Origin: Escherichia coli
GTDB lineage: Bacteria; Pseudomonadota; Gammaproteobacteria; Enterobacterales; Enterobacteriaceae
Assembly: GCF_016903815.1 (NCBI RefSeq)
Contig: NZ_CP069973.1
Length of the DNA: 64,000 nt
Strand: one strand, 5' to 3'
Part shown: positions 5,400-38,131 of the stretch, piece by piece
How positions within the stretch are numbered: the stretch's first letter is position 1
How the letters are laid out: each line of letters opens with the position of its first letter
The notes under the pieces: generated by a model
What the model saw: the letters and a program-made list of their open reading frames with translations, nothing else
What the model was told of the DNA's origin: nothing
Databases searched by the model: none
Position numbers and translations under genes: made by a program

Positions 5400-7718
5400 T
5401 TACAACGTAATTGTCAGCGCATTCCCTTGAGGAGTCACCACCAGTCCCTGCTCACTTTCAGCCTGCGAACCACCTTGCAGACCATTTACTTTCACAATAT
5501 TGCGCAAGCACAGTGTCCAGTTCTTCGCCTCGCCCGCACCAGTCACAGTAATCGTGTTGCCAGTACGCGCCGCTTTCAGGGTGAAAAGAACGGAACCGTC
5601 AGCAGCGGGCACTTCACAGATGGCTTCATGCCCGTCTTGTAGATTAAAGAGCTGGAATGCCGTGCCTTCGTGCCACGCGTAATCGGGACGTTGCTCGTTG
5701 TTGCCCAGCGCCAGTAGGGTGTTATCACGCACATAAACGGGCAGACTCAGGAAGCTGTGCTGCTGTTTATGCCAGCGACTACCATCGAGTTCATCGTTGT
5801 GCCACAGGTGTGTCCAGCGACCTTCAGGCAAGTAGAACTGCACATCGCCCGCTTCAGTGAACACAGGCGCAACCATCACGTTGTCGCCTAACATGTATTG
5901 ACGGTCAAGGTAATCACAAGCCGGATCGTCCGGAAACTCCATCATCATGGCCCGCATCATCGGCGTACCCCGCGCGTTCGCACGAGCAGCTTCACGATAC
6001 AGATAAGGCATCATGCGGCATTTCAGTTGCGTGAAGAAGCGCACCACATCACAGGACTCATCATCGTAGGCCCACGGCACACGATAAGATTTGCTGCCAT
6101 GTAAACGGCTATGGCTGGAGAGCAAACCAAACGCGCACCAGCGTTTGTAAACGTGCGCCGGAGCGGTATTCTCAAAGCCGCCGATATCGTGGCTCCAGAA
6201 GCCAAAACCTGAAAGGCCAATAGACAAACCACCGCGCAGGCTTTCCGCCATTGATTCGTAGTTAGCGTAACAGTCGCCACCCCAGTGTACCGGGAATTTC
6301 TGCGCACCAACGGAGGCAGAGCGAGCAAACAAGACGGCTTCTTCCTCGCCAACGGTTTCCTTGAGCACGTTCCACACCAGTTCGTTGTAGATGTACGCAT
6401 AATGGTTATGCATTTTCTGCGGATCGGAACCGTCAAACCATTGAACATCGGTTGGAATACGTTCGCCAAAGTCGGTCTTAAAGCAATCAACGCCCATCGC
6501 GACCAGACCTTTCAGTTTGTCGGCGTACCATTTGCAGGTATCCGGATTGGTAAAGTCATAAATCGCCAGACCTGGCTGCCATTTATCCCACTGCCATAAC
6601 GAACCGTCCGGGTGTTTGAGTAAATAGCCTTTCTCTTGTAACTCTTTAAAGACAGGGGATTTTTGCCCGATATAGGGGTTAATCCAGACGCAGATTTTTA
6701 GCCCTTTCGCTTTCAGGCGGCGGATCATCCCTTCCGGGTCCGGGAAAGTCAGCGGGTCCCACTCAAAATCGCACCACTGGAAGGCTTTCATCCAGAAACA
6801 GTCAAAGTGGAAAACATGCAGTGGCAGATTGCGTTCCGCCATACCATCGATAAAGCTGTTTACCGTCGCTTCGTCGTAGTTGGTGGTAAATGAAGTGGTT
6901 AGCCACAGGCCGAAGGACCACGCGGGCGGCAGCGCCGGACGACCAGTAAAACGGGTATAACGATCAAGTACCGCTTTTGGCGTCGGGCCGTCGATAACAA
7001 AGTATTCGAGATATTCACTCTCAACGCTGAACTGCACTTTGGAGACTTTCTCCGATCCCACTTCAAAAGAGACGCATTGAGGATGATTGACCAGTACCCC
7101 ATAACCACGGTTAGTCATATAGAACGGAATATTTTTATACGCCTGTTCAGTACTTGTGCCGCCGTCCCGGTTCCAGGTCTCTACCGTCTGGCCATTGCGC
7201 ACCAGCGCAGTAAAGCGCTCTCCCAGACCGTAAACTGTTTCGCCAACGCCAAGATCCAGCCGCTCAAACATATAATTTCGTTGATTATTCGTGTCCTGCA
7301 CGTAGCCATTATTTTTCACCTGACTACCGGTAATACGTTCGCCGTTACGCAGAAAATCCAGTGACCAGAACTCACCTTTGCTGACACGCGCACTTAAGTT
7401 GCCACTTTTAAACTCAGCGTAACGTTCTGTGTTTTCGATTGTGACCTTCACGTCCTGCAAAATATTGAGCGGGTAATGAGGACCGTTATTCAGCGCCCCC
7501 TGAAAATGCTCAATCCGTACACCGACAATACCTTCCTGTGGGGAGAAAAAGCGCAGCGTAAATAAAGGCGTATCAAGCTGCCAGGTACGTTCACGCACAT
7601 CACGAGGGGCAGCATAGACCACCATTTCATTACCCTGCTCTTCAACCTCGAACACCTGAAGCGGGTGAATCAAATTGAGGCCAGGTTGAATCAACCAGTT
7701 TCCGTCGCTAATTTTCAT
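5400..7718 (-). CDS. yicI: alpha-xylosidase, glycoside hydrolase family 31 (772 aa)
   Basis: 772-aa GH31 protein; position next to yicJ and selC matches the E. coli core order (recalled). Confidence 0.9.
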
Positions 7719-7727
7719 TGCCGTTCC

Positions 7728-9110
7728 TTAGTTCTGCACTTTTTGAGAGGTGAATTGTTGCTGGCAACGGCGTTTGCCCTGAGCCAGCTGTTCCATAACG
7801 GTTTTCAGATTGTGCGTCGTGAGTGAGTAGTAGCGTTTAGCGATAATCGCGCTCAGCAAATAACAGATCGCCGGAACAATCGTGAATAGCGCGATAATGA
7901 TGCTAATCGTGGCGCTGTTCTGCGCTTTTTCTGCCGCATCATATCCGCCATAAGCCAGCATCCAGCCGATAAGAGCGCCGCCGAAGGCCAACCCCAGTTT
8001 GAGCACAAACAGCGTGCCAGCAAAACTGATCCCGGTCAGGCGTTTACCATTGCACCACTCGCCGTAGTCGACGGTATCGGACATCATTACCCACTGGATA
8101 GGTGTCACCAGTTGATGCAACACACCAATCACGAAGATGAAGACAAACATAGTGATGCTGGCCTGCATAGGAACAAAGAACATCGCGAGGCTAATCACTG
8201 CCAGCAGGGCGTTCGTCCACCAGAAGATAGTGACTTTACATTTCCAGTCGGTCAGCGGTTTCGCCAGTGCGGAACCAATCAGGTTACCCACGCAATAAGT
8301 GGTAAGAAAAGCGACAAACACTTCCGGCGTACCCAAAATCCATGTGACGTAATACATCATCGCCCCGCCGCGTACGCATACCGCCAGAATATTGAAAATG
8401 GTCAGGAAACCGACAATACGCCACTGGTCGTTTTGCCAGATATCACGTAAATCTTCCCGCATAGACGTCGTTGTAGGTGGTGCTTCAACGCGTTCTTTAG
8501 TGGTGAAGAAACAAAATGCCAGCATCATAAATGCCACCACGGAAAGGACCGCGATACCGCCCTGGAAACCGAGTGGTTTATTATCACCACCAATTAAATT
8601 AACCAGCGGCATCATCAGCACAGTAGAGAGCATGCCTCCCGCGGTCGCCAGCACAAAACGCCAGGATTGCAGCGAGATACGCTGAGTCGGGTCATTGGTG
8701 ATTACACCACCCAATGCGCAGTAAGGGATATTAACGATGGTATAAAGTAAGGTAAGTAGGGTGTAAGTAATTGCTGCATAAATCATTTTTCCGTTCATAC
8801 TGAGATCTGGCGTGCTATAGGCCAGTACACAGACGATCCCAAATGGCAGTGCGCCAAACAGTACCCACGGACGAAATTTACCCCAGCGAGAGCGCGTTCG
8901 ATCGGCCAACAACCCCATGCAAGGATCGGAAATCGCATCCAGTGCACGAGCGACCAAAAACATGGTTCCGACAAATCCGGCAGGAATGCCAAAAATATCG
9001 GTATAAAAGAACATCATATATAACATTACGTTATCGAAAATAATGTGGCTGGCGGCGTCTCCCATGCCATAACCAATTTTCTCTTTAACGGACAACACTT
9101 CACTCTTCAT
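7728..9110 (-). CDS. yicJ: GPH-family sugar:cation symporter
   Basis: 12-TM transporter; start placed at internal ATG (MKSEVLSVKEK...) rather than the longer 479-aa ORF beginning at 9167. Confidence 0.85.
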   Translation of the reverse strand: MKSEVLSVKEKIGYGMGDAASHIIFDNVMLYMMFFYTDIFGIPAGFVGTMFLVARALDAISDPCMGLLADRTRSRWGKFRPWVLFGALPFGIVCVLAYSTPDLSMNGKMIYAAITYTLLTLLYTIVNIPYCALGGVITNDPTQRISLQSWRFVLATAGGMLSTVLMMPLVNLIGGDNKPLGFQGGIAVLSVVAFMMLAFCFFTTKERVEAPPTTTSMREDLRDIWQNDQWRIVGFLTIFNILAVCVRGGAMMYYVTWILGTPEVFVAFLTTYCVGNLIGSALAKPLTDWKCKVTIFWWTNALLAVISLAMFFVPMQASITMFVFIFVIGVLHQLVTPIQWVMMSDTVDYGEWCNGKRLTGISFAGTLFVLKLGLAFGGALIGWMLAYGGYDAAEKAQNSATISIIIALFTIVPAICYLLSAIIAKRYYSLTTHNLKTVMEQLAQGKRRCQQQFTSQKVQN

Positions 9111-9402
9111 CTGCTTTTCCTTGATGCTATAGGGGTGCTGAGACCGATAACGCATTTTGTAAACCATCCCTGTGAGAGCGAATATTCCGATATCTGGTTA
9201 TTAATTTATGATTCTTGTTTTATGTGATCGTGGTAGCGTTAATTCCGCTCATATATCATTGTAAAATATGGGTTTTATATGAATTATAATGCTTTCGTGA
9301 TAATACGCTGCGTGTATTAGGCGGAAAAAACTGATCTGGGGGATGTAGAAACTCAAGGAAGTAGCTATAATGCGCCCCGCCTCCATGTAGCAATCGAGGC
9401 GC

Positions 9403-9497
9403 GGAAGATCGTCGTCTCCGGTGAGGCGGCTGGACTTCAAATCCAGTTGGGGCCGCCAGCGGTCCCGGGCAGGTTCGACTCCTGTGATCTTCCGCCA
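9403..9497 (+). tRNA. selC: tRNA-Sec (selenocysteine tRNA), 95 nt ending in CCA
   Basis: Sequence GGAAGATCGTCGTCTCCGGTGAGGCGGCTGGACTTCAAATCCAGTTGG...GTTCGACTCCTGTGATCTTCCGCCA read directly; UCA anticodon loop (CTTCAAATC); long variable arm. Confidence 0.95.
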
Positions 9498-9796
9498 GTT
9501 TACCTCTTCTGAACTCTCCCAATGTCAATAAATCTCTTCTAATCCCTTGTATATCAGTATTTATTTGTATCCAGAGGTCAACCTACTTCACCCCGTATCA
9601 AGTTTCTTTTGGGGGTACTTTAGGGGGTGTTATTTCCTATTGAAATACCAGCACCCCCATAATAGGAAAAATATGATATATAACAACGGCTTTTAACAAC
9701 ATCTTTGTTATACAAGGGGTGTATTGGGGGTATCAGGTTAGTTACTGGCAGAAATCCCCCTCAGGAACATGAATTCATCAAAAGCCGGAGGATGTC

Positions 9797-10981
9797 ATGG
9801 CATTAACCGATATCAAAGTGAAAACCGCAAAACCCAAAGACAAACCCTATAAGCTTGCTGATGGCGGCGGTATGTATCTACTGATTAACACTAATGGTTC
9901 TAAATACTGGCGCATGAAGTACCGCTTTGCTGGTAAAGAAAAGATGCTTTCTATTGGCGTATACCCCGATGTAACGCTAGCCGATGCTCGCGAGAAACGC
10001 AGTGAAGCCAGGAAACTCCTCGCTGCTGGAGGCGATCCAGGGGAGGCAAAAAAGGAAGAAAAAATCGCGCAGCAAATGAGTCTGCAAAATACGTTCGAGG
10101 CTATTGCTCGCGAATGGCACCAGTCAAAAGCCGATCGGTGGTCATTACGCTATCGTGATGAAATCATTGATACCTTTGAAAAAGACATTTTTCCCTACAT
10201 TGGCAAGCGCCCTATTGCCGAAATCAAACCAATGGAGTTACTGGAAGCACTGCGTAAAATGGAAAAACGTGGAGCTCTGGAGAAAATGCGCAAGGTCCGC
10301 CAGCGCTGTGGTGAGGTGTTCCGCTATGCAATTGTTACTGGCCGGGCAGACTATAACCCAGCCCCCGATCTTGCCAGTGCTTTAGCTACACCGAAAAAAG
10401 TACATTTTCCCTTTCTTACTGCTAATGAACTTCCCCACTTCCTCAACGATCTGGCGGGTTATACCGGAAGTATAATCACTAAGACAGCTACTCAGATCAT
10501 TATGTTAACCGGCGTACGAACACAAGAACTGCGTTTTGCACGCTGGGAAGATATCGATTTTGAGACAAAATTGTGGGAGATCCCGGCAGAAGTAATGAAG
10601 ATGAAGCGACCTCATATTGTGCCGCTCTCTGAGCAGGTCATTATGCTATTTAAGCAGCTTGAACCAATCTCAAAACATCATCCCCTAGTCTTTATCGGTA
10701 GAAATGATCCCCGCAAACCAATTAGTAAGGAAAGCATTAACCAAGTAATTGAATTACTTGGATATAAGGGAAGACTCACAGGGCATGGTTTCAGACACAC
10801 CATGAGTACAATTCTGCATGAACAAGGCTTTAATTCCGCCTGGATTGAAATGCAGTTAGCTCATGTGGATAAAAATTCCATCAGGGGTACCTATAATCAT
10901 GCCCTGTATCTCGATGGCCGCCGTGAAATGATGCAATGGTACGCTGATTACATTGATTCACTCTCCAGCCGGGAAAGTTAA
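9797..10981 (+). CDS. P4-family tyrosine integrase (394 aa), island integrase at selC
   Basis: N-terminus MALTDIKVKTAKPKDKPYKLADGGGMYLLI... typical of P4-type integrases; C-terminal catalytic region with HGFRHT and Y; strong RBS GGAGG; 300 bp downstream of selC. Confidence 0.85.
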   Translation: MALTDIKVKTAKPKDKPYKLADGGGMYLLINTNGSKYWRMKYRFAGKEKMLSIGVYPDVTLADAREKRSEARKLLAAGGDPGEAKKEEKIAQQMSLQNTFEAIAREWHQSKADRWSLRYRDEIIDTFEKDIFPYIGKRPIAEIKPMELLEALRKMEKRGALEKMRKVRQRCGEVFRYAIVTGRADYNPAPDLASALATPKKVHFPFLTANELPHFLNDLAGYTGSIITKTATQIIMLTGVRTQELRFARWEDIDFETKLWEIPAEVMKMKRPHIVPLSEQVIMLFKQLEPISKHHPLVFIGRNDPRKPISKESINQVIELLGYKGRLTGHGFRHTMSTILHEQGFNSAWIEMQLAHVDKNSIRGTYNHALYLDGRREMMQWYADYIDSLSSRES

Positions 10982-11391
10982 GTCAAAAATACTTTTCCCT
11001 GATGTTTTCCTCAATTAAGTATTTTATCCTCTGGCCTACAAGGCTGGAGGATTTTTGTTATTATATTATTTTTTGCGTCTTCAAACTTATTACAAAAACA
11101 TAATTAAAAGCAAATTGACATTTTTAAATTGGCAATTACAAAATACAGCCTTGCAGTTATTTCGATACCTTTAGCAAAGGAAAAGTTGATTCAGATATAA
11201 TTTAGCATTTCAATCATCTGACATCATTATAAAAAATGAGATTCACATAAAGATAAAATTATTGTTCTCAAGGAAAGCATGAAGGGGCTTTGTAAGCAAT
11301 ATTCATTCAGTGCCAAGACAGGACTTGATACACAGAATCTCAACTTTTATGCTCTCAGACTATATCACCACATGTTTTACAGGCTCAGAAA

Positions 11392-12435
11392 ATGAACGAT
11401 AGATTATGCTTTGAAGTGCACGATAACCAGGGTTATTTCGTATTTCCGGATACCTGGTTTGGCCCATTGCTGGGGGAGTTTGAAGAAGTGCTTGATGCAT
11501 ACGACGCTGATGAAATCAGCGAGACGAGTTACATCAACAAACTCCGACGCCTTGCTCAACGGGAGCCGGACTTTATTGATATACACGCTCATCTGGCATA
11601 TGCATTTCTGGAACAGAATGCCCCGCGTAAGGCACTGAACGCCGCTCTTAAAGGACTGGCGGCAGGTAATCGTATCATCCCGGAAAGTTTCTGTGGTGAA
11701 ATAATCTGGATGCATCCCGAAAACCGGCCTTATCTGCGCGCGCTTTATGCAGCAATTCTCGCAAATGTGCACTTACAGCGCCATCAGGATGCGGTTATGC
11801 TCACTGATAAAATACTGGCATACAATCCTGAAGATAATCAGGGGGCTCGCTGGTTGTTGGGTTCAGAGCTGTTACGCACCGGCGATCATGAGCGAGCCTT
11901 CAGTGTACTGAAAGAGCATGCTGATGAATTTTCACCTTACTGGTATGAACTCGGTCTCCTGCATTTTCTGAACGGGGAACATGTTAAGGCCGCCACAGCT
12001 TTTCGCCATGGCTTTGCCACAAACACTTACATCGCAGAAATGCTGTGCGGAAATCTGCATCCATTTCCACTTGCTGTGTGGCATGACTTCTCCGGCTCTC
12101 TGGATACGGCAGAAGATTACTATGCAACATACTCACCATTATGGGGACAATATCCGGAAGCATTGCTGTTTGTAAACTGGCTCTATAATCATTCCTCTGT
12201 GCTGCATGAACGGGCAGAAATCATTAAATGCGCCGAAATGCTGATGCAGGAAGATGATTTCGAAATATGCGAAAGTATTTTAAGACAGCAGGAGAAGTTG
12301 CGTGAAAGAATTGATGAGACGCTTTCTGAAAAAATTGTACAGAAATGCAGAAATATGAATGGTGAATATGTCTGGCCCTGGATATTGCCGTTTTCAGCGG
12401 CAGGCATGAAACATACTGGCATACAGTATCAGTAG
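11392..12435 (+). CDS. hypothetical protein (347 aa), island cargo of unknown function
   Basis: Long ORF after a 410-bp AT-rich spacer downstream of the integrase; predicted mainly helical, no recognised motif. Confidence 0.55.
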   Translation: MNDRLCFEVHDNQGYFVFPDTWFGPLLGEFEEVLDAYDADEISETSYINKLRRLAQREPDFIDIHAHLAYAFLEQNAPRKALNAALKGLAAGNRIIPESFCGEIIWMHPENRPYLRALYAAILANVHLQRHQDAVMLTDKILAYNPEDNQGARWLLGSELLRTGDHERAFSVLKEHADEFSPYWYELGLLHFLNGEHVKAATAFRHGFATNTYIAEMLCGNLHPFPLAVWHDFSGSLDTAEDYYATYSPLWGQYPEALLFVNWLYNHSSVLHERAEIIKCAEMLMQEDDFEICESILRQQEKLRERIDETLSEKIVQKCRNMNGEYVWPWILPFSAAGMKHTGIQYQ

Positions 12436-12832
12436 ATATTGCATTAGTGTATCCTGCACACAAGTAATAATTTATCCACCAATAATAACACTGTTAATGT
12501 CCCCTTCCCCTGGTTGTCAGCCAGGGGTTATCTTCTGAATATTTCTTTTGAAAAGGATAACACAGTAAATTATTTTTATGAATTATCCCATGGACTCATT
12601 AACACCCTTTCATAATGCTTTATTGTCAAACACGTTATGGCTGACATCAAAAAAAACCGGATTTCCTCTGCCAGCGGGTAATCACCTTCCCGGTGTTTTC
12701 GGTTGGTCTGGTTACTCCTGTCTGGTTATTAGCAAGATAATTGCTATAAACAGTGGAAAACTCATCGTACATAATCTGGTGATGAACATTACGCTTATTT
12801 TCCCTTGACCGGAAGAATCAGAGGCTGTGGTT

Positions 12833-13903
12833 TCAGTCATACAGTCCATCTCCTTTAATCGGAGTTGGCTCTTTCCCTGGCCGTATACGGCGAACAGATT
12901 CTCGTATTACCAGTTTCCCATACAAAAGTAATGCACCAACAGTTGCATCAGGACGTACAAGTCTTTGTTGTAACATATGTACCGCTTCAGTACCCAGTTC
13001 ATCGCGAGGTACATGTACTGCCGTAAGTGGCACATCTTCTATTGCAGCCAGATTAAACCCATCAATACTCATTACGGACACATCTTGTGGCACTCGTATA
13101 TTACGTTTTTTTAAAGCGTTAATTATACCTGCAGCAATGAAGTCCCCACTTGCCAAAAAAGCAGTCGGTAGCATACTTTTCTCTGTCATATCCAGCCATG
13201 CTCCGACTTTTTCTTCGGCTTCTTTGGCGCTGAAACTATTAATAGTGAGTAAATCTCTGTCATCTTTAAAGTTCTGATTCTGTCTCTCCCATGCTTCTTT
13301 AATTCCGGCAAGTCGCAGTTCCATTGTGTATCGACGTAAACACATAATGTTCATTACTCTGCGATGCCCCATTTCAAACAGAAAGTGAGACGCAAAAGCA
13401 CCAATGTTTTTGTGATCTGGAGCAACTGTGGGAAGACGCATACGTCGATCATGGCAGTTAATCATTACGCACGGCTTAGAAAAATCTGCTGCAAGATCAT
13501 GTATATGAGGATCATCAATACCAAGCAATATTGCAGCCTGTGTTTCTGCCTCATTCATGCGCGCCAGGAATTTTGAAGGTGTACTATCGAACTCATCAAG
13601 GGCACAGTAACGCAACCGAACCTCATAATGCGATAATGCCTTGCTGATGCTTTGGATTACGCGGAAATAAAAAATGTCTGTTCGCTCATCAAAAGCCCGT
13701 TGAGGAGCAAAAATGACAAGGTTGTTTAACAACATACGGCCGGATGCCATTCCATCCATAACCCCAAGCTCTCTGGCACACGCCAATACTTTCTCGCGGG
13801 CACGATAACTGGTATTAGCTTTACCCGCTAAAACCCGTGACACGGTGCTGGATGAAAGGCCTGTTCGCATGGCAATATCAGCAATCTTTAGTTTTTTTTC
13901 CAT
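12833..13903 (-). CDS. LacI-family transcriptional regulator
   Basis: N-terminal HTH (KIADIAMRTGLSSSTVSRVLAG) plus periplasmic-binding-like sugar-binding core; start placed at first ATG (the track ORF begins at an upstream TTG, 13927). Confidence 0.8.
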   Translation of the reverse strand: MEKKLKIADIAMRTGLSSSTVSRVLAGKANTSYRAREKVLACARELGVMDGMASGRMLLNNLVIFAPQRAFDERTDIFYFRVIQSISKALSHYEVRLRYCALDEFDSTPSKFLARMNEAETQAAILLGIDDPHIHDLAADFSKPCVMINCHDRRMRLPTVAPDHKNIGAFASHFLFEMGHRRVMNIMCLRRYTMELRLAGIKEAWERQNQNFKDDRDLLTINSFSAKEAEEKVGAWLDMTEKSMLPTAFLASGDFIAAGIINALKKRNIRVPQDVSVMSIDGFNLAAIEDVPLTAVHVPRDELGTEAVHMLQQRLVRPDATVGALLLYGKLVIRESVRRIRPGKEPTPIKGDGLYD

Positions 13904-14164
13904 ATTGTGATCTATCTCTAATTTCAAAATGAAAAAATTCTCATGGGATGGAATAGCCTGACTGCAAGGACTTCTGACTATTTTTAGAATTTATATGAAC
14001 TACTTATGAAAAAACGTGCACAATACCAACTTTTTTTCATCGCCCCCCTCTTTTATTGTGAATGAGTAGTTCCGGTTTAAGTATTAAGCCGAAAGGTAAA
14101 GTGGGATGTGGCAACCCCGAGCTGCGTTGTCGCTCGATCATTTATTACATCCGGTGGGGTGATT

Positions 14165-15466
14165 ATGAGTCAGGATATAAATAATAATATAGCTGTCAGC
14201 AAACACCGTCGAATAATAAGACAACTACGGTGGTGGATGTTAATCCTTTTTCTAATGGGTGTCACTGTCAATTATATTACCAGAAACTCATTAGGTATTT
14301 TGGCACCAGAGTTAAAAGACAGCCTTGGAATTACAACTGAACAATACTCCTGGATTGTTGGTGGATTTCAGCTTGCATATACCCTTTTTCAGCCACTTTG
14401 TGGATGGCTAATTGATGTTATTGGGCTCAAGATTGGATTTATGATTTGTGCTTCATTATGGGGAATTGCTTGTCTTCTGCATGCAGGAGCAGGAAGCTGG
14501 ATACAGCTTGCGTTGCTTCGTTTTTTCATGGGAGGTGCTGAGGCTTCTGCGACACCTGCAAATGCAAAAATTATAGGTGAGTGGTTTCCAAAATCTGAAC
14601 GTCCTGTTGCTGCTGGCTGGGCGGGTGTCGGTTTTTCTATCGGTGCAATGCTTGCACCACCAATTATTTACTTTGCACATGCGTCATTTGGTTGGCAGGG
14701 TGCATTTATGTTTACAGGTGCACTTGCAATTCTTTGGGTTTTCCTTTGGTGGGCGTGTTATAACACACCAGAAGAGCACCCAAACTTAAGTAAAAATGAG
14801 CTCAACTTTATCCGACAGGATAACGAAGCTCCTCCGGTAAAAATGCCTTTTCTGACCGCGTTAAAAACAGTTAGTAAAAATAAACGCTTTTATGGAATCG
14901 CTATCCCTGCATTTATGGCAGAGCCAGCATGGGCTGTAATGAGCTTTTGGGTGCCATTATATCTTGCAAAAGCATATGGCATGGACCTTAAACAAATAGC
15001 TCTGTTTGCATGGTTACCATTTCTTTGCGCTGATTTAGGAAGTATTGCCAGCGGATATCTGACAAAACTCTATACCCGTCTGTTTGGGTTAAGCAGAGTA
15101 AATTCTGTTATTGCGTCCTCTGTAAGCGGAGCATTTCTAATGGTTTCGCTTGCTGTGATTGCTTTTATCGACAATCCATATATTGCTATTGTACTTATCT
15201 CCATTGGTGGTTTTGGTCATCAGATAATTTCCTGCATGTTAAGTGCCCTGGTCGTTGAATCTTTTGATAAGGGGCAGATGGCCACTGTTAATGGAATGCG
15301 TGGTTCAGCCGCATGGATTGCCAGCTTTTTGTTCTCACTGATTATTGGCGTTACTGCTGACAAAATAGGCTTTAACCCGCTATTTATCGCCATGGGATTT
15401 TTTGATCTTATTGGTGCTTTTTTTCTGGTTACTTTTATTGCAGAACGTCGCAAAAAACGCACCTGA
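14165..15466 (+). CDS. MFS transporter (ACS/ExuT-like sugar acid/oligosaccharide permease)
   Basis: 12-TM MFS; start placed at ATG preceded by GGTGGGGTGA RBS (MSQDINNN...); the track ORF extends upstream to 14108. Confidence 0.8.
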   Translation: MSQDINNNIAVSKHRRIIRQLRWWMLILFLMGVTVNYITRNSLGILAPELKDSLGITTEQYSWIVGGFQLAYTLFQPLCGWLIDVIGLKIGFMICASLWGIACLLHAGAGSWIQLALLRFFMGGAEASATPANAKIIGEWFPKSERPVAAGWAGVGFSIGAMLAPPIIYFAHASFGWQGAFMFTGALAILWVFLWWACYNTPEEHPNLSKNELNFIRQDNEAPPVKMPFLTALKTVSKNKRFYGIAIPAFMAEPAWAVMSFWVPLYLAKAYGMDLKQIALFAWLPFLCADLGSIASGYLTKLYTRLFGLSRVNSVIASSVSGAFLMVSLAVIAFIDNPYIAIVLISIGGFGHQIISCMLSALVVESFDKGQMATVNGMRGSAAWIASFLFSLIIGVTADKIGFNPLFIAMGFFDLIGAFFLVTFIAERRKKRT

Positions 15467-15480
15467 GGGAGTATGTGGAG

Positions 15481-17862
15481 ATGAAAACATTAAAAAACTG
15501 GAAACTACAAAATCAGTCAGCCCATCATATAGAGCTATTAGTTGATGGTCAGCATTCTCTTTGCCTGTATATACTCGAAGAAAATATGTTCCGGGTTCTA
15601 TTAAAACGGAAGGGGGTTTTGTCGCTGGACCGAACCTGGAGCATTGCTCCGGAAAAGGATGTCCCGTGGGAAGGGCGTCATCGCGAAGATATTAGCGGTT
15701 TTTCACTGCCGACCTGGAACATGGAGCAGAATGATGAATTACTGACAATCACGACCAGTTCATTACGCGTAATTATTCACAAGCCTTTATGGCTTGAATG
15801 GCATTATAAGGATAATGCTGGTCAGTGGCAGGAACTTGTTAATGATCGCCCTACCAGTGCTTATCTGATAAACGCTCATGGTGATGGTGTTGCACACTAT
15901 CAAAGTCGACGTAATGACGAGCGTTTTTATGGACTTGGTGATAAATCCGGGGATCTGCAACGCACAGGAAAACGCTATGAAATGCGGAACCTGGACGCAA
16001 TGGGATATAATGCAGTAAGTACAGACCCTCTTTATAAACATATTCCATTTACAATTACTCACCGTAGCGATATTAGCTTTGGATTATTTTATGATAACCT
16101 CAGCAATAGTTGGCTGGATTTAGGTAATGAAATAGATAATTATCATACAACTTACCGCCGTTGGCAGGCTGAGGCGGGAGATATTGATTATTATCTTTTC
16201 ACTGGCAGATGTGTACTTGATATCACCAAAGCCTTTGTTCGTTTGACGGGGAAAACACTCTTCGGTCCAAAATGGAGTCTTGGGTACAGCGGTTCCACGA
16301 TGCACTATACAGATGCACCGGATGCTCAGAATCAATTGATGCAGTTTATTCGTCTTTGTAAGGAACATGCTATTCCATGTGATTCTTTCCAGCTATCTTC
16401 TGGTTATACTTCTATTAATGGTAAACGCTACGTATTCAACTGGAATTACGACAAAGTTCCACACCCTAAAATGATGAGTCAGGAGTTTCATAATGCAGGG
16501 ATACACCTGGCCGCTAATATAAAACCATGTTTATTGCAGGATCATCCTCGCTATAACGAAGTAGCAGAACAAGAGCTCTTTATTCGTGACTCTGAATACA
16601 ACGTCCCGGAACGCTCCAGCTTCTGGGATGATGAGGGTTCTCATCTGGACTTTACGAACCCACAAACAGTCGCATGGTGGCAGGAAGGTGTAACCACACA
16701 ACTACTTGAAATGGGAATTGATTCCACCTGGAATGATAACAATGAGTTTGAAGTATGGGATGGGGAAGCGCGCTGTCATGGTTTTGGCAAAGAAATCGCC
16801 ATTAAACACATTCGGCCAGTAATGCCTCTTTTAATGTGCAGAGCATCTATGGAAGCACAGCAAAAATTTGCACCGAACAAACGACCATATTTGATTTCCC
16901 GCTCTGGATGCGCCGGATTGCAGCGTTATGTTCAGACATGGAGTGGGGACAACCGAACTAACTGGGATACCCTTCGATACAACACCCGCATGGGGCTGGG
17001 AATGAGCCTCTCAGGATTGTATAACATTGGTCATGATGTCGGTGGTTTTTCTGGTGATAAGCCTGATCCAGAATTATTTGTTCGTTGGGTTCAGAACGGT
17101 GTTATGCACCCCCGATTTACGATCCACTCGTGGAATGATGATCATACTGTCAATGAACCATGGATGTATCCGGAAGTAACACCCGCGATTCGTAGTGCAA
17201 TTGAGTTACGTTATCGTCTTATGCCTTATTTATATACATTATTGTGGCAGGCACATGCCGATGATGAGCCAATATTACGTCCAACCTTCCTTGATCATGA
17301 GCACGATGTTCAGACATTTGAAGAATGTGATGATTTTATGCTGGGACGCGATATTCTGGTTGCAAGTGTCGTGGAAGCAGGGCAACGACAACGACGAGTA
17401 TGGTTACCCGACAACAAAACAGGATGGTACGACTTTTACAATGGCGAATGGTTCTGTGGTGGTCAATGGATAACAATCGACGCGCCACTGGAAAAACTAC
17501 CATTATTAGTACGTGCAGGTGCAGGTATTCCTCTTAGTGAACGTATAACATACGTGAGTGAAGCGGAAGATAATCATCGTAAATTGAAATTATTCCCAAT
17601 TAAAGGAACGGGTAAATCCACCGGACTTCTGTTTGAAGATGATGGCGAAACTTGGGGATATACTGAAGGTAATGCTCTGTGGCTTGAATGGGAGCTGGAC
17701 TGCACAGCCACTACAATTGAGTTAAGAATAAACACTCATGGAGATTATCGCCCTGCATGGGAAACATTGAAAGTGATAATTCCTCAGGGAGAAAGTCGTC
17801 AACTACTGATTAACGGCATTGAGGCTTATGAATGGAATATGAACCTATCCTGTAATGATTAA
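15481..17862 (+). CDS. glycoside hydrolase family 31 (alpha-glucosidase/alpha-xylosidase-like)
   Basis: GH31 signatures including WNDNNE and GDN; start at ATG after GAGGGAG RBS; second GH31 enzyme in the window besides yicI. Confidence 0.85.
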   Translation: MKTLKNWKLQNQSAHHIELLVDGQHSLCLYILEENMFRVLLKRKGVLSLDRTWSIAPEKDVPWEGRHREDISGFSLPTWNMEQNDELLTITTSSLRVIIHKPLWLEWHYKDNAGQWQELVNDRPTSAYLINAHGDGVAHYQSRRNDERFYGLGDKSGDLQRTGKRYEMRNLDAMGYNAVSTDPLYKHIPFTITHRSDISFGLFYDNLSNSWLDLGNEIDNYHTTYRRWQAEAGDIDYYLFTGRCVLDITKAFVRLTGKTLFGPKWSLGYSGSTMHYTDAPDAQNQLMQFIRLCKEHAIPCDSFQLSSGYTSINGKRYVFNWNYDKVPHPKMMSQEFHNAGIHLAANIKPCLLQDHPRYNEVAEQELFIRDSEYNVPERSSFWDDEGSHLDFTNPQTVAWWQEGVTTQLLEMGIDSTWNDNNEFEVWDGEARCHGFGKEIAIKHIRPVMPLLMCRASMEAQQKFAPNKRPYLISRSGCAGLQRYVQTWSGDNRTNWDTLRYNTRMGLGMSLSGLYNIGHDVGGFSGDKPDPELFVRWVQNGVMHPRFTIHSWNDDHTVNEPWMYPEVTPAIRSAIELRYRLMPYLYTLLWQAHADDEPILRPTFLDHEHDVQTFEECDDFMLGRDILVASVVEAGQRQRRVWLPDNKTGWYDFYNGEWFCGGQWITIDAPLEKLPLLVRAGAGIPLSERITYVSEAEDNHRKLKLFPIKGTGKSTGLLFEDDGETWGYTEGNALWLEWELDCTATTIELRINTHGDYRPAWETLKVIIPQGESRQLLINGIEAYEWNMNLSCND

Positions 17863-18459
17863 TTTATTGTAGAGGGTAAATCATGGCCAAATAAAGGCAC
17901 TGTAAGAGTAAAACTTATAGTGCCTTTATATACAAGCCAGATTATAACGCCATGCAATGAAACGCCCCCATGCATACGTAGATTAACTATCTCTTACCAT
18001 TTTACATATCCGAAAGAATATGTTTTAACAGAAAGGTAAAACATGAGCGATAATAAAAAAGAGCACTTCCACAATGTAATAATAAGATGGGTTATTATTT
18101 TCGCCACTATTGAATACATATATTTATTTATAAAGTTTCTCTAAAGTCTTAATACCCATCCCATCAAAAAACAATGCGGGGTTGTTAAAATAACAACATA
18201 ACACTGTTTTCATGAGAATAGTAAAGCGTTTATTCAAAACCGTTTATAGCAACCCCATAAACCCAACATAGCAATTGAGTTTAAAAAGGAGATTTCATTG
18301 TCCCCTATCAATTAAACTTCATGTTTTTTAGTTTGTTTATAAAACAACATCATATCTCCTATAAAATACTCAGCAGTATTAAACCACCTTATCTTTAACC
18401 AAACTATTTATTCCGCAAGCCCACACTTATGGATATTTACCGTTGGTAATGACTCCAAC

Positions 18460-18963
18460 TTACTGATAGTGTTTTATGTTCAGATAATGCCCGATGACCT
18501 TGTCATGCAGCTCCACCGATTTTGAGAACGACAGTGACTTCCGTCCCAGCCTTGCCAGATGTTGTCTCAGATTCAGATTATGTCGCTCAATGCGCTGAGT
18601 GTAACGCTTGCTGATAACGTGCAGCTTTCCCTTCAGGCGTGATTCATACAGCGGCCAGCCATCCGTCATCCATACCACGACCTCAAAGGCCGACAGCAGG
18701 CTCAGAAGACGCTCCAGTGTGGCCAGAGTGCGTTCACCGAAGACGTGCGCCACAACCGTCCTCCGTATCCTGTCATACGCGTAAAACAGCCAGCGCTGAC
18801 GTGATTTAGCACCGACGTAGCCCCACTGTTCGTCCATTTCAGCGCAGACAATCACATCACTGCCCGGTTGTATGCGCGAGGTTACCGACTGCGGCCTGAG
18901 TTTTTTAAGTGACGTAAAACCGTGTTGAGGCCAACGCCCATAATGCGTGCACTGGCGCGACAT
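18460..18963 (-). CDS. insB: IS1 InsB reading frame (expressed as InsAB by frameshift)
   Basis: ORF-track 167-aa frame overlapping insA inside IS1. Confidence 0.8.
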
Positions 18964-19157
18964 CCGACGCCATTCATGGCCATATCAATGATTTTCTGGT
19001 GCGTACCGGGCTGAGAGGCGGTGTAAGTGAACTGTAGTTGCCATGTTTTACGGCAATGAGAGCAGAGATAGCGCTGATGTCCGGCAGTGCTTTTGCCGTT
19101 ACGCACCACGCCTTCAGTAGCGGAGCAGGAAGGACATCTGATGGAAATGGAAGCCAC
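18882..19157 (-). CDS. insA: IS1 InsA (91 aa)
   Basis: ORF-track protein [40 protein letters not shown]... inside the IS1 copy. Confidence 0.85.
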
Positions 19158-19212
19158 GCAAGCACCTTAAAATCACCATCATACACTAAATCAGTAAGTT
19201 GGCAGCATTACC

Positions 19213-19301
19213 AAATCTGGAGCTACCACGCGTTGTTCTGGCTGGCGATAGGGATGTTGGGTATTGCGATGATTTGCCTGCTGTTTATTAAAGATATTTA
19301 G
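19213..19301 (+). pseudogene. 3' remnant of an MFS sugar-efflux gene (setC-like), truncated by IS1
   Basis: Immediately after the IS1 end an in-frame stretch ...IWSYHALFWLAIGMLGIAMICLLFIKDI-stop remains with no start; in K-12 setC lies between selC and yicL (recalled). Confidence 0.5.
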
Positions 19302-19411
19302 CTCACCAGTCTGGGCTAAGAAAAATCGGCGTGGCGCAAACAGAGCCATCCTCGCCATTTTTGCTATCATGCCTGCATACATAAACGACAAAACAGTATG
19401 CAGAGGGAAAA

Positions 19412-20335
19412 ATGGGTTCCACCAGAAAGGGGATGCTGAACGTTCTGATTGCCGCCGTGTTGTGGGGAAGTTCAGGGGTCTGCGCGCAATACATCATGGA
19501 GCAAAGCCAGATGTCGTCGCAGTTTTTGACTATGACGCGTTTGATATTCGCCGGTTTGATTCTGCTGACGCTGTCATTTGTTCATGGCGATAAAATCTTT
19601 TCTATTATTAACAATCACAAAGATGCCATTAGTCTGCTGATTTTTTCCGTGGTTGGCGCGCTAACCGTACAGCTCACCTTTTTACTGACCATTGAAAAAT
19701 CGAATGCTGCCACGGCAACGGTGCTGCAATTCCTCTCACCGACGATTATCGTCGCCTGGTTCTCACTGGTGCGTAAATCCCGCCCGGGCATTCTGGTTTT
19801 TTGCGCTATTTTGACATCGCTGGTCGGGACTTTTTTACTGGTGACACACGGTAATCCGACGTCATTATCAATCTCTCCGGCCGCGTTATTCTGGGGCATT
19901 GCCTCGGCATTTGCTGCGGCATTCTATACCACCTATCCCTCAACGCTAATTGCCCGCTATGGCACGTTGCCTGTCGTCGGCTGGAGTATGCTGATCGGCG
20001 GTCTGATTCTGTTGCCTTTTTATGCCAGACAAGGGACAAACTTTGTCGTTAACGGCAGTTTGATTCTGGCGTTTTTTTATTTGGTGGTCATTGGTACGTC
20101 CCTGACATTTAGTCTGTACCTGAAAGGAGCACAATTAATTGGCGGGCCAAAAGCCAGCATTTTGAGCTGTGCAGAGCCATTAAGTAGCGCGCTGCTCTCT
20201 TTGCTGTTGCTGGGGATCACATTCACATTACCGGACTGGCTGGGCACACTGCTGATTCTGTCATCGGTGATTTTGATTTCAATGGATTCCCGTCGCCGCG
20301 CCAGAAAAATAAATCGTCCGGCGCGGGATGAGTGA
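19412..20335 (+). CDS. yicL: EamA/DMT-family inner membrane transporter (307 aa)
   Basis: 10-TM EamA-like protein; position before nlpA matches the E. coli core. Confidence 0.85.
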
Positions 20336-20338
20336 GAA

Positions 20339-21157
20339 TTACCAGCCAGGCACCGCGCCACCGTTAAAGATGGTTTCTGCCGCTTTAGCGACTTCGGATG
20401 ATTGATAAGATTGCAGAAATTCCTTCACGTTTTCTGCATTCTTATTATCTTCCCGTGCTACCAGAATATTCACATACGGCGAATTCTTATCTTCAATAAA
20501 TACGCTGTCGTGCACCGGAGAAAGCCCGGTCTGCTGAATGTAAGTGGTGCTGATAATCGCCACATCAACTTTGGGATCATCCAGTACGCGCGGGAGCTGC
20601 GCCCCCTCGAGTTCCATAATCTGCAAATGACGAGGATTCTCGGTTATATCCAGCGCGGTAGGTAGTAACCCTTTTCCCTCTTTCAGAGTAATTAGCTTCT
20701 CTTTTTGCAACAGTAAAAGCGCGCGACCAAGGTTGGTCGGGTCGTTGGGGATCGCCACTGTCGCGCCTTCTTTTATTTGCGCCACGGTTTTGATTTTTTT
20801 GGAATAACCCGCCATGGGGAAGACAAACGTATTTCCCACCGCTACCAGTTTATAACCATGCGCCTGATTATCTTGTTCAAGAAAGGGTCGATGCTGGAAG
20901 ACGTTCGCATCAAGCTCGCCATGATTTGTCGCATCGTTCGGTAGCAACGAACCGCTAAATCCTACCAATTCAACATCGAGGCCATATTTCTCTTTTGCCA
21001 CCTTTTTAGCGACTTCCGCGACATCTTGTTCTGCGCCATTAATAACGCCCACTTTAATGTGCTTTTCATCGCTGCTGCTCTGGTCGCAACCTGCCAGCAG
21101 AATTCCTGCCAGTAATAATGCGCCCCCCGCCCGTAGATGATGTGTTGTCAGTTTCAC
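20339..21157 (-). CDS. nlpA: lipoprotein-28, methionine-binding lipoprotein family (272 aa)
   Basis: Lipoprotein signal with lipobox LAGC; NlpA/MetQ-like substrate-binding domain. Confidence 0.9.
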   Translation of the reverse strand: MKLTTHHLRAGGALLLAGILLAGCDQSSSDEKHIKVGVINGAEQDVAEVAKKVAKEKYGLDVELVGFSGSLLPNDATNHGELDANVFQHRPFLEQDNQAHGYKLVAVGNTFVFPMAGYSKKIKTVAQIKEGATVAIPNDPTNLGRALLLLQKEKLITLKEGKGLLPTALDITENPRHLQIMELEGAQLPRVLDDPKVDVAIISTTYIQQTGLSPVHDSVFIEDKNSPYVNILVAREDNKNAENVKEFLQSYQSSEVAKAAETIFNGGAVPGW

Positions 21158-21366
21158 TTTTTTATCCTTTTTTTAATCGTTAACTGACTATAATGGCAAG
21201 ATCACTACGATTTAAAAAACGAAAAGCTATCGAATAGAAGAAAAAGGTATATAAAACTGGCACTTCTTACTGACCACGCAAACACCTTTCGTACAGCATG
21301 ATGAGAGCGGCAAAAGCAAACTACACTTATGCTTCATTCGATGCACATTTGCAGAAGGTTGCAGCT

Positions 21367-21660
21367 ATGAAGCCAACGATGCTACTCATGATTACCGTAT
21401 TCCTGACTTTCCCAGCCATTTCTCAGGCCGAATCGCCATTCAGTTCTCTACAGTCGGCAAAAGAAAAGACCACGGTATTGCAAGATTTACGTAAAATTTG
21501 CACGCCACAGGCGTCATTATCAGACGAAGCGTGGGAAAAATTAATGTTGTCTGATGAGAATAACAAACAACATATCCGCGAAGCTATTGTGGCGATGGAG
21601 CGTAATAATCAGAATAACTACTGGGAAGCGCTGGGTAAAGTGGAATGCCCGGATATGTGA
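21367..21660 (+). CDS. yicS: small secreted/periplasmic protein YicS (97 aa)
   Basis: Start placed at internal Met (MKPTMLLMITVFLTFPAISQA signal peptide); the track ORF extends to 21298. Confidence 0.75.
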   Translation: MKPTMLLMITVFLTFPAISQAESPFSSLQSAKEKTTVLQDLRKICTPQASLSDEAWEKLMLSDENNKQHIREAIVAMERNNQNNYWEALGKVECPDM

Positions 21661-37470: not shown

Positions 37471-37824
37471 GTGTTTAAAACCAAATGGTTTGCAAGGGAA
37501 GCCAGGTCTCATGCAATAACAGATGAAGAGTTGTGCCGTGCCATTTTAGAAACGGAACAAGGTAAAGCTGATGCACTTGGCGGTGGCGTTTTTAAAAAGC
37601 GCCTTCACCAAAATCGTGAGCGTGCAATTATTCTGGCAAAAGGGGGAAGCAATTGGTTTTACACGTTTTTATATGCAAAACAGGATATGTCGAACATCAA
37701 TAGTCAGGAACTGGCTGGGTTTCGTGAACTTGCAAAGCATTATGCCTTCCTGACGAAAGCCCAACTAACAGCAATGATTAACACTAAAGAACTGACAGAG
37801 ATCTGCTATGACTGCAAAAACTAA
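37471..37824 (+). CDS. putative type II toxin, RelE/HigB (Gp49-like) fold (117 aa)
   Basis: Small basic protein with GGGVFKKRL...RAIIL...FYTFLYAKQD pattern reminiscent of HigB-2/Gp49-like toxins; GTG start; overlaps the downstream HTH gene by 17 bp. Confidence 0.5.
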   Translation: MFKTKWFAREARSHAITDEELCRAILETEQGKADALGGGVFKKRLHQNRERAIILAKGGSNWFYTFLYAKQDMSNINSQELAGFRELAKHYAFLTKAQLTAMINTKELTEICYDCKN

Positions 37825-38131
37825 ATTTAAAAGTCCTGCATTTGAGGCTATTCACAGCGCAGCGGCTGGATTGTCCAGCGTCGATGCTATTTCTGCTGAA
37901 ACGATGCGTACTTTTGACAAAGCCTGCCTGACCAGCGTGCAAGACTTACAACCTGTTGAGATAAAAGCACTGCGGGAAAAATTAAAAGTGAGTCAGCCCG
38001 TCTTCGCTCACTATCTCAATACCAGCGTTTCAACTGTACAAAAATGGGAAAGTGGCGCTAAACGCCCCAATGGCATTTCATTAAAACTGCTCAGCATTGT
38101 GCAAAAACACGGGCTGGAGGTGCTGCTGTAA
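37808..38131 (+). CDS. putative antitoxin, XRE/MqsA-like HTH DNA-binding protein (107 aa)
   Basis: C-terminal HTH (LKVSQPVFAHYLNTSVSTVQKWESGAKRPNGISLKLL); toxin-first overlapping gene pair. Confidence 0.5.
   Translation: MTAKTKFKSPAFEAIHSAAAGLSSVDAISAETMRTFDKACLTSVQDLQPVEIKALREKLKVSQPVFAHYLNTSVSTVQKWESGAKRPNGISLKLLSIVQKHGLEVLL

Follow-up and report, generated by a model that had tools for sequence, protein, structure and literature searches.

The 64,000-nucleotide stretch of Escherichia coli DNA analysed here (RefSeq assembly GCF_016903815.1, contig NZ_CP069973.1), referred to below as the window, carries at positions 9403–19301 the tRNA-Sec gene selC, the integrase-proximal part of a genomic island, a complete copy of the insertion sequence (IS) IS1 and the 3' end of the sugar-transporter gene setC. 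The element is a decayed, truncated member of the described family of CP4/P4-type selC islands, to which Selc*B of E. coli B and the GI-selC islands belong. Relative to the complete copy of strain BL21 it lacks the distal part, the right attachment site (attR) and part of the adjoining chromosome, and IS1 stands in their place. The features of the locus, from left to right, are the following:

9403..9497, plus strand: selC (tRNA-Sec), identified with ARAGORN and as Rfam RF01852 (83.8 bits)
9797..10981, plus strand: intact P4/CP4-type tyrosine integrase of 394 aa, identified by its Pfam domains, its catalytic residues and a homologue in enteroaggregative E. coli (EAEC) 042
11392..12435, plus strand: tetratricopeptide repeat (TPR)-like protein of 347 aa, with weak Pfam TPR/ANAPC3 matches; tetratricopeptide repeat protein in RefSeq
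12833..13903, minus strand: LacI-family regulator, divergent from the transporter-hydrolase pair; RbsR/CytR/PurR-type in NCBIfam, RefSeq agrees
14165..15466, plus strand: MFS transporter of the anion:cation symporter type (NCBIfam TIGR00893, 3.5e-79), RefSeq agrees
15481..17862, plus strand: GH31 alpha-glycosidase of 793 aa (NCBIfam MalA alpha-glucosidase, 2e-93; YicI alpha-xylosidase, 1e-68)
18043..18144, plus strand: open reading frame (ORF) for a YkgR-like small membrane protein of 33 aa, from the RefSeq annotation of an identical sequence; the last annotated island gene before IS1
18445..19212, minus strand: complete IS1 of 768 bp with 23-bp terminal inverted repeats; insA and insB on the minus strand
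19213..19301, plus strand: 3' remnant of setC, 89 bp, aligned to BL21 setC 3695581–3695669; partial sugar-transporter pseudogene in RefSeq

The island begins directly behind selC: in the comparison with empty sites, identity stops at the 3' end of the tRNA gene and island DNA follows from 9498. The remnant (9498–18444) represents the integrase-proximal 8.9 kb of the island, with a G+C content of about 0.42 (flanks about 0.50), and the right part of the island was found in 330 of the 5,426 complete E. coli genomes that underlie all population counts given here. The sporadic distribution and the atypical base composition are those expected of a tRNA-integrated island. From 9000 to 21500 the window shows 100% identity to many complete chromosomes of E. 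coli, that of strain 7/2 among them. The Rfam scan gave no match besides tRNA-Sec.

The left attachment core (attL) is formed by 17 bp of the selC 3' end (9474–9490, TTCGACTCCTGTGATCT), and the same core recurs as attR in BL21 at 3693828. No second repeat of the selC 3' end was found in the 64-kb window by exact k-mers of at least 12 nt downstream of the gene, by the 17-mer with up to three mismatches or by repeat finding, apart from a single three-mismatch site at 60327, which is judged a chance match. The complete BL21 copy possesses the attL/attR repeat pair of the P4/CP4 island type and the window retains attL alone, so the element in the window is classified as a truncated member and not as a complete island.

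A preliminary description, made from the letters of the window alone, had proposed much of this arrangement. The P4-type integrase 300 bp downstream of tRNA-Sec, the cargo of a 347-aa protein, a LacI regulator, an MFS transporter and a GH31 enzyme, the missing direct repeat of the selC 3' end and an IS1 abutting about 29 last codons of setC were all recovered at the positions listed above. It had also named beforehand what would speak against a truncated island, namely an attR in place or an integrase reduced to a fragment; the window contains no attR and the integrase is full-length. The comparison with known selC islands that it had suggested leads to Selc*B of BL21 and to GI-selC of CFT073 and EC958.

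The extent of the loss can be read from the alignment with BL21. Window positions 8000–18444, which include 1.4 kb of the chromosomal left flank, align to BL21 3671461–3681905 with 99.67% identity, and the alignment resumes at 19213, corresponding to BL21 3695581 onward. Between these points 13,675 bp of BL21 sequence are replaced by IS1. In BL21 the island continues for another 11.9 kb with ssb, IS remnants, a gene for an autotransporter of 1,165 aa and a toxin module of the CbtA type, and is followed by attR (TTCGACTCCTGTGATCT), a spacer of about 640 bp and full-length setC. The DNA after the attR core is 98% identical to the empty selC site and leads into the intact setC; the complete BL21 element, with attL and attR, measures 20.9 kb. 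The window has lost the distal island, attR, the selC–setC spacer, which is present at empty sites as well, and the first 1,096 bp of setC. Neither the distal-island DNA of BL21 nor the 5' DNA of setC was detected elsewhere in the 64-kb window, where it was sought as a sign of inversion or translocation. The deletion of attR and of the 5' part of setC, as put forward in the preliminary description, is thereby supported by an uninterrupted copy.

The IS1 copy occupying the break is annotated in RefSeq with an intact transposase and its programmed frameshift. It is found in the context ATTTACCGTT–IS1–AAATCTGGAGC and has no target-site duplication (TSD), its flanks being ATTTACCGTT on one side and AAATCTGGAG on the other. 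The element marks both where the island is cut off and where the deletion in setC ends. The setC remnant consists of 28 whole codons and 2 nt, encodes IWSYHALFWLAIGMLGIAMICLLFIKDI followed by a stop codon, identical to the SetC C-terminus of EAEC 042, and is followed by yicL, nlpA and yicS. The gene is presumably inactivated. That the island was never longer here, being a short 9-kb element at whose natural right end IS1 landed, is very improbable, and this reading was rejected: the IS1 lacks a TSD, setC is cut, the spacer of about 640 bp between selC and setC is gone, and 124 genomes have the uninterrupted BL21-type site, where the island sequence runs on without a gap beyond the break point.

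The left junction between the island and IS1 is present, to the exact nucleotide, in 203 genomes, and the right junction of the window, between IS1 and the setC remnant, in 116. The one left junction is combined with at least five right junctions, namely those of the window, of DA33137, of EC958 together with strain 2/0, of FDAARGOS_1259 and of CFT073. In the strains other than the window, IS1 is followed by:

EC958 and strain 2/0: a pseudogene and the BREX-1 system
FDAARGOS_1259: DUF2254/BCCT fragments
CFT073: an antiporter-decarboxylase unit with a second IS1 at its end
DA33137: sequence from immediately upstream of the gene for the eip chaperone

The right junction of DA33137 corresponds to window position 21776, the deletion extending 2,563 bp deeper from the same IS1 end. 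This strain additionally lacks the setC remnant, yicL, nlpA and yicS, in an arrangement unique in the collection. The IS1 copies of EC958, 2/0, DA33137 and FDAARGOS_1259 are identical over 768 of 768 positions. A count of 93 genomes for the EC958-type junction was not used, being contaminated by an arrangement in the thrW island with IS1 475 bp further out.

The signature of an IS-anchored adjacent deletion is an IS that stays in place without a TSD, with a junction that is constant on one side and variable on the other, and with a deeper deletion nested in the series. At the selC island these features are represented by: (i) a complete IS1 with both inverted repeats at the deletion site; (ii) the absence of a TSD; (iii) a constant left junction joined to five right junctions in a nested series, with the deletion of DA33137 reaching deeper.

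The island is at least 99.8% identical among BL21, CFT073, EC958 and the window, against 98.1–98.4% in the yicJ flank. Because the island and its IS1 are more conserved than this flank, the sequence comparison points to a single origin of the IS1-bearing module and to its movement between lineages. The same data bear on the idea that the whole segment, from selC through the island and IS1 to the setC remnant, arrived in finished form from another E. coli through homologous recombination of the flanking core genes. The island and IS1 are at least 99.9–100% identical between the window and the phylogroup B2 strains EC958 and 2/0, with flanks differing by about 2%, and the module is one shown to move between lineages. 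Import would nevertheless account for the spread and not for the formation of the structure, as an IS1-associated deletion would still be required somewhere, and as an explanation of the truncation it is improbable.

The observations are consistent with the following course of events. A CP4/P4-type island would have integrated at the 3' end of selC, a single IS1 would have inserted between the ykgR-like ORF and ssb of the island, and this IS1-bearing version would then have spread among lineages. In the lineage of the window the integrase-distal end of IS1 would have joined a target inside setC, most likely by intramolecular replicative transposition, the classic "adjacent deletion" of IS1, taking out the distal island, attR, the selC–setC spacer and 1,096 bp of setC. 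The outcome would be an intact integrase with attL alone, the LacI/MFS/GH31 cargo fixed in the chromosome and setC inactivated. Intramolecular transposition of the integrase-distal IS1 end into setC is the route favoured here, with moderate confidence.

Deletions of this kind have been followed in the E. coli long-term evolution experiment, where adjacent deletions without TSDs were often extended stepwise; the 14 events all concerned IS150 and none IS1 (PMC11708052). The window resembles them in the kept IS, the missing TSD, the combination of one fixed with one variable junction and the stepwise extension. The difference is that the process was observed there, whereas in the window it is reconstructed from natural isolates and recombination between IS1 copies remains as an alternative; the same study gives IS–IS recombination as a frequent cause of missing TSDs (PMC11708052).

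In this alternative, an IS1 copy in the island at 18445 and another, independently inserted in setC near codon 366 in direct orientation to it, would have undergone RecA-dependent homologous recombination, with loss of the DNA between them and one hybrid IS1 with mismatched flanks as the product. IS1 insertions at this spot of setC do occur: in the island-free strains O121 201805972 and VL7S7 an IS1 identical to that of the window over 768 of 768 positions lies in setC in the same orientation (loci L010 and L011, positions 6158–6925), with an 8-bp TSD (GAAATCTG) and 1 bp from the junction of the window. IS1 is moreover abundant, the median genome having about 10 places that match it. The setC::IS1 junction known from the two strains is, however, shifted by 1 bp (IS1 followed by GAAATCTGG, against AAATCTGG in the window), and these insertions are hence not the actual precursor. 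Furthermore, no genome with both IS1 copies was encountered, the single-piece setC–IS1 matches among all genomes being confined to the two island-free strains, and the DA33137 variant would require yet another IS1 insertion and recombination. Recombination between two IS1 copies is for these reasons considered possible but rather unlikely. The other 13 matches of the setC::IS1 query (at least 80% coverage) are two-piece places, read as IS1A copies elsewhere near setC. The insertions of O121 201805972 and VL7S7 look independent, and the setC site looks like a preferred target or hot spot of IS1, which fits both the transposition and the recombination model.

Several points weigh against the favoured route of intramolecular transposition, or limit what can be built on it. 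The simple precursor, an island with IS1, its TSD and ssb, occurs in none of the genomes, and recombination of two directly oriented IS1 copies gives an equal final structure. As the precursor is unsampled, we infer the mechanism and the order of events. In CFT073 and EC958 this IS1 leads into quite different modules, as part of much larger GI-selC islands, and the immediate ancestor, its distal content included, may not have been BL21-like. As to the cargo, the NCBIfam matches of the LacI, MFS and GH31 proteins all lie under the curated equivalog cut-offs, and its function is a predicted one. The preliminary description had spoken of an IS1-mediated deletion: the part that stands is an IS1 without a TSD in place of 13,675 bp, while "mediated" is a reading of the anatomy, in which transposition and IS1–IS1 recombination are indistinguishable.

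The distribution of the junctions raises a wider, tentative interpretation, to which somewhat less than even credence is given. One IS1, located at one and the same nucleotide of the selC island in phylogroup A-derived, B2 and D-like backgrounds, may act as a recurrent recombination hub that attaches modules (BREX-1, Dr adhesins, the decarboxylase/antiporter unit) or removes the chromosomal flank. The setC position would then be a hot spot at which IS1 landed independently, to within 1 bp, in strains that are not related. If so, the window would be one snapshot of IS1-driven module exchange at selC and not a one-off deletion. One left junction with at least five right junctions provides a natural example of a single IS1 remodelling a tRNA island hot spot.

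The BREX-1 block itself, together with the pseudogene and IS1, occurs both in the thrW island of some strains, such as FDAARGOS_1058 (locus L013, positions 10394–22775), and in the selC island of EC958 (locus L009, positions 12166–24150). In the thrW version IS1 lies 475 bp further out than behind the selC-island IS1 of EC958 and 2/0, which suggests an IS1-linked shuffling of the defence module between tRNA islands.

The integrase starts 300 bp past selC and reads away from the tRNA gene. Pfam domains Arm-DNA-bind_3, Phage_int_M and Phage_integrase (arm-binding, central and catalytic) span its full length, and the catalytic residues R, K, HxxR, H and Y are all present in the translation. The protein is 71% identical and colinear end to end with the integrase of the P4-like selC satellite of EAEC 042, and BL21, CFT073 and EC958 encode an identical protein (WP_001218910.1). 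With attR missing, this intact enzyme has no partner site for attL, and integrase-mediated excision is probably no longer possible; the term "immobilised" used in the preliminary description appears reasonable, judged from the sequence, as far as the integrase route is concerned.

The cargo proteins are intact and identical to their BL21 counterparts. The TPR-like protein and a 76-aa ORF gave no PHROGs or PADLOC match. The nearest solved structure for the GH31 protein is 6jr6 (4e-82), followed by endoplasmic reticulum glucosidase II. A search of the intergenic region 13904–14164 for a LacI-type operator palindrome yielded nothing convincing. Family membership and gene order suggest that the LacI, MFS and GH31 genes could form a repressor-controlled unit for the uptake and hydrolysis of alpha-glycosides. 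Just upstream of selC, at window positions 5400–9167, the chromosome carries a transporter and GH31 pair resembling that of the island at 14165–17862; it consists of yicI, for a GH31 alpha-xylosidase, and yicJ, for a GPH transporter. Two GH31 systems thus flank selC, with distantly related enzymes (about 4e-35 for YicI structures against the island GH31).

Among the known relatives, Selc*B (CP4) is the listed prophage-like element at selC of E. coli B, REL606/BL21 (PMC3032704). It shares with the window the site, the integrase WP_001218910.1 and the gene order TPR–LacI–MFS–GH31–ykgR, at 99.7% nucleotide identity. In contrast to the window, which has the first 8.9 kb ending in IS1, the B copy is complete (20.9 kb), with ssb, the autotransporter, the CbtA toxin module, attR and an intact setC. 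GI-selC islands have been named in uropathogenic E. coli CFT073 (68 kb) and in EC958 of sequence type 131 (PMC3573123, PMC4134206). Their proximal module is identical and IS1 lies at the same nucleotide and in the same orientation as in the window; they differ in that tens of kb of other modules follow IS1 in CFT073 and EC958, whereas the IS1 of the window runs into the end of setC. Strain 2/0 has the BREX-1 junction of EC958 and then a Dr/Afa adhesin operon.

The selC-A/selC-B organisation of EAEC 042 was described by Sheikh et al., here as given in the summary of PMC7058095. This strain and the window share selC, an island, the setC–yicL–nlpA–yicS order and the eip (selC-B) locus, as well as integrases that are 71% identical. 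The selC-A slot of EAEC 042 is, however, occupied by a P4-like satellite prophage (psu, delta, primase) delimited by a selC repeat of 21 bp, and the strain has an intact setC; the window has a remnant of the GH31 island, no repeat and a truncated setC.

The kind of decay seen here, an IS-mediated truncation present in more than 100 sequenced genomes, is already known, and the locus represents no new element or mechanism. What is added is how much DNA was lost and what it contained, as measured against BL21, the identity with Selc*B/GI-selC, the common IS1 junction with its multiple right partners and the two competing routes of transposition and recombination. For annotation, the block should be labelled a truncated selC island of the Selc*B/GI-selC type with an orphan but intact integrase, and setC an IS1-generated pseudogene. 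The sugar-utilisation genes of the cargo would now be effectively chromosomal. The exact junction, shared by 116 complete genomes, could act as a lineage marker.

Beyond the island, the eip (selC-B) locus lies at 21962–35851 between yicS and nepI, as in EAEC 042; BL21 has nothing there. Encoded there are a chaperone similar to SycD, a translocon protein similar to YopB/SseC and air/eaeX, a giant inverse autotransporter whose internal repeats measure about 290 bp. A second IS1 (24724–25491) is located in this type III effector locus, between the flanks 24501–24723 and 25492–35851. It is 93.4% identical to the first copy, in the opposite orientation and without a TSD, and 5,313 bp are absent at this point relative to strain 7/2, comprising most of an eipC-like gene, the IpaD-like eipD, the regulator eilA and the last 1,061 nt of air/eaeX. 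This is a second IS1-associated deletion in the window, and the eip locus has probably lost its regulator.

Further differences from BL21 are found downstream. A pair of a RelE/ParE toxin and a helix-turn-helix antitoxin, at about 37471–38131 between nepI and yicN, lies in a gap of the BL21 alignment. About 3.4 kb between uhpA and ilvN (47203–50607) have no BL21 counterpart; strain 7/2 has two hypothetical genes there, of 1,464 and 483 bp.

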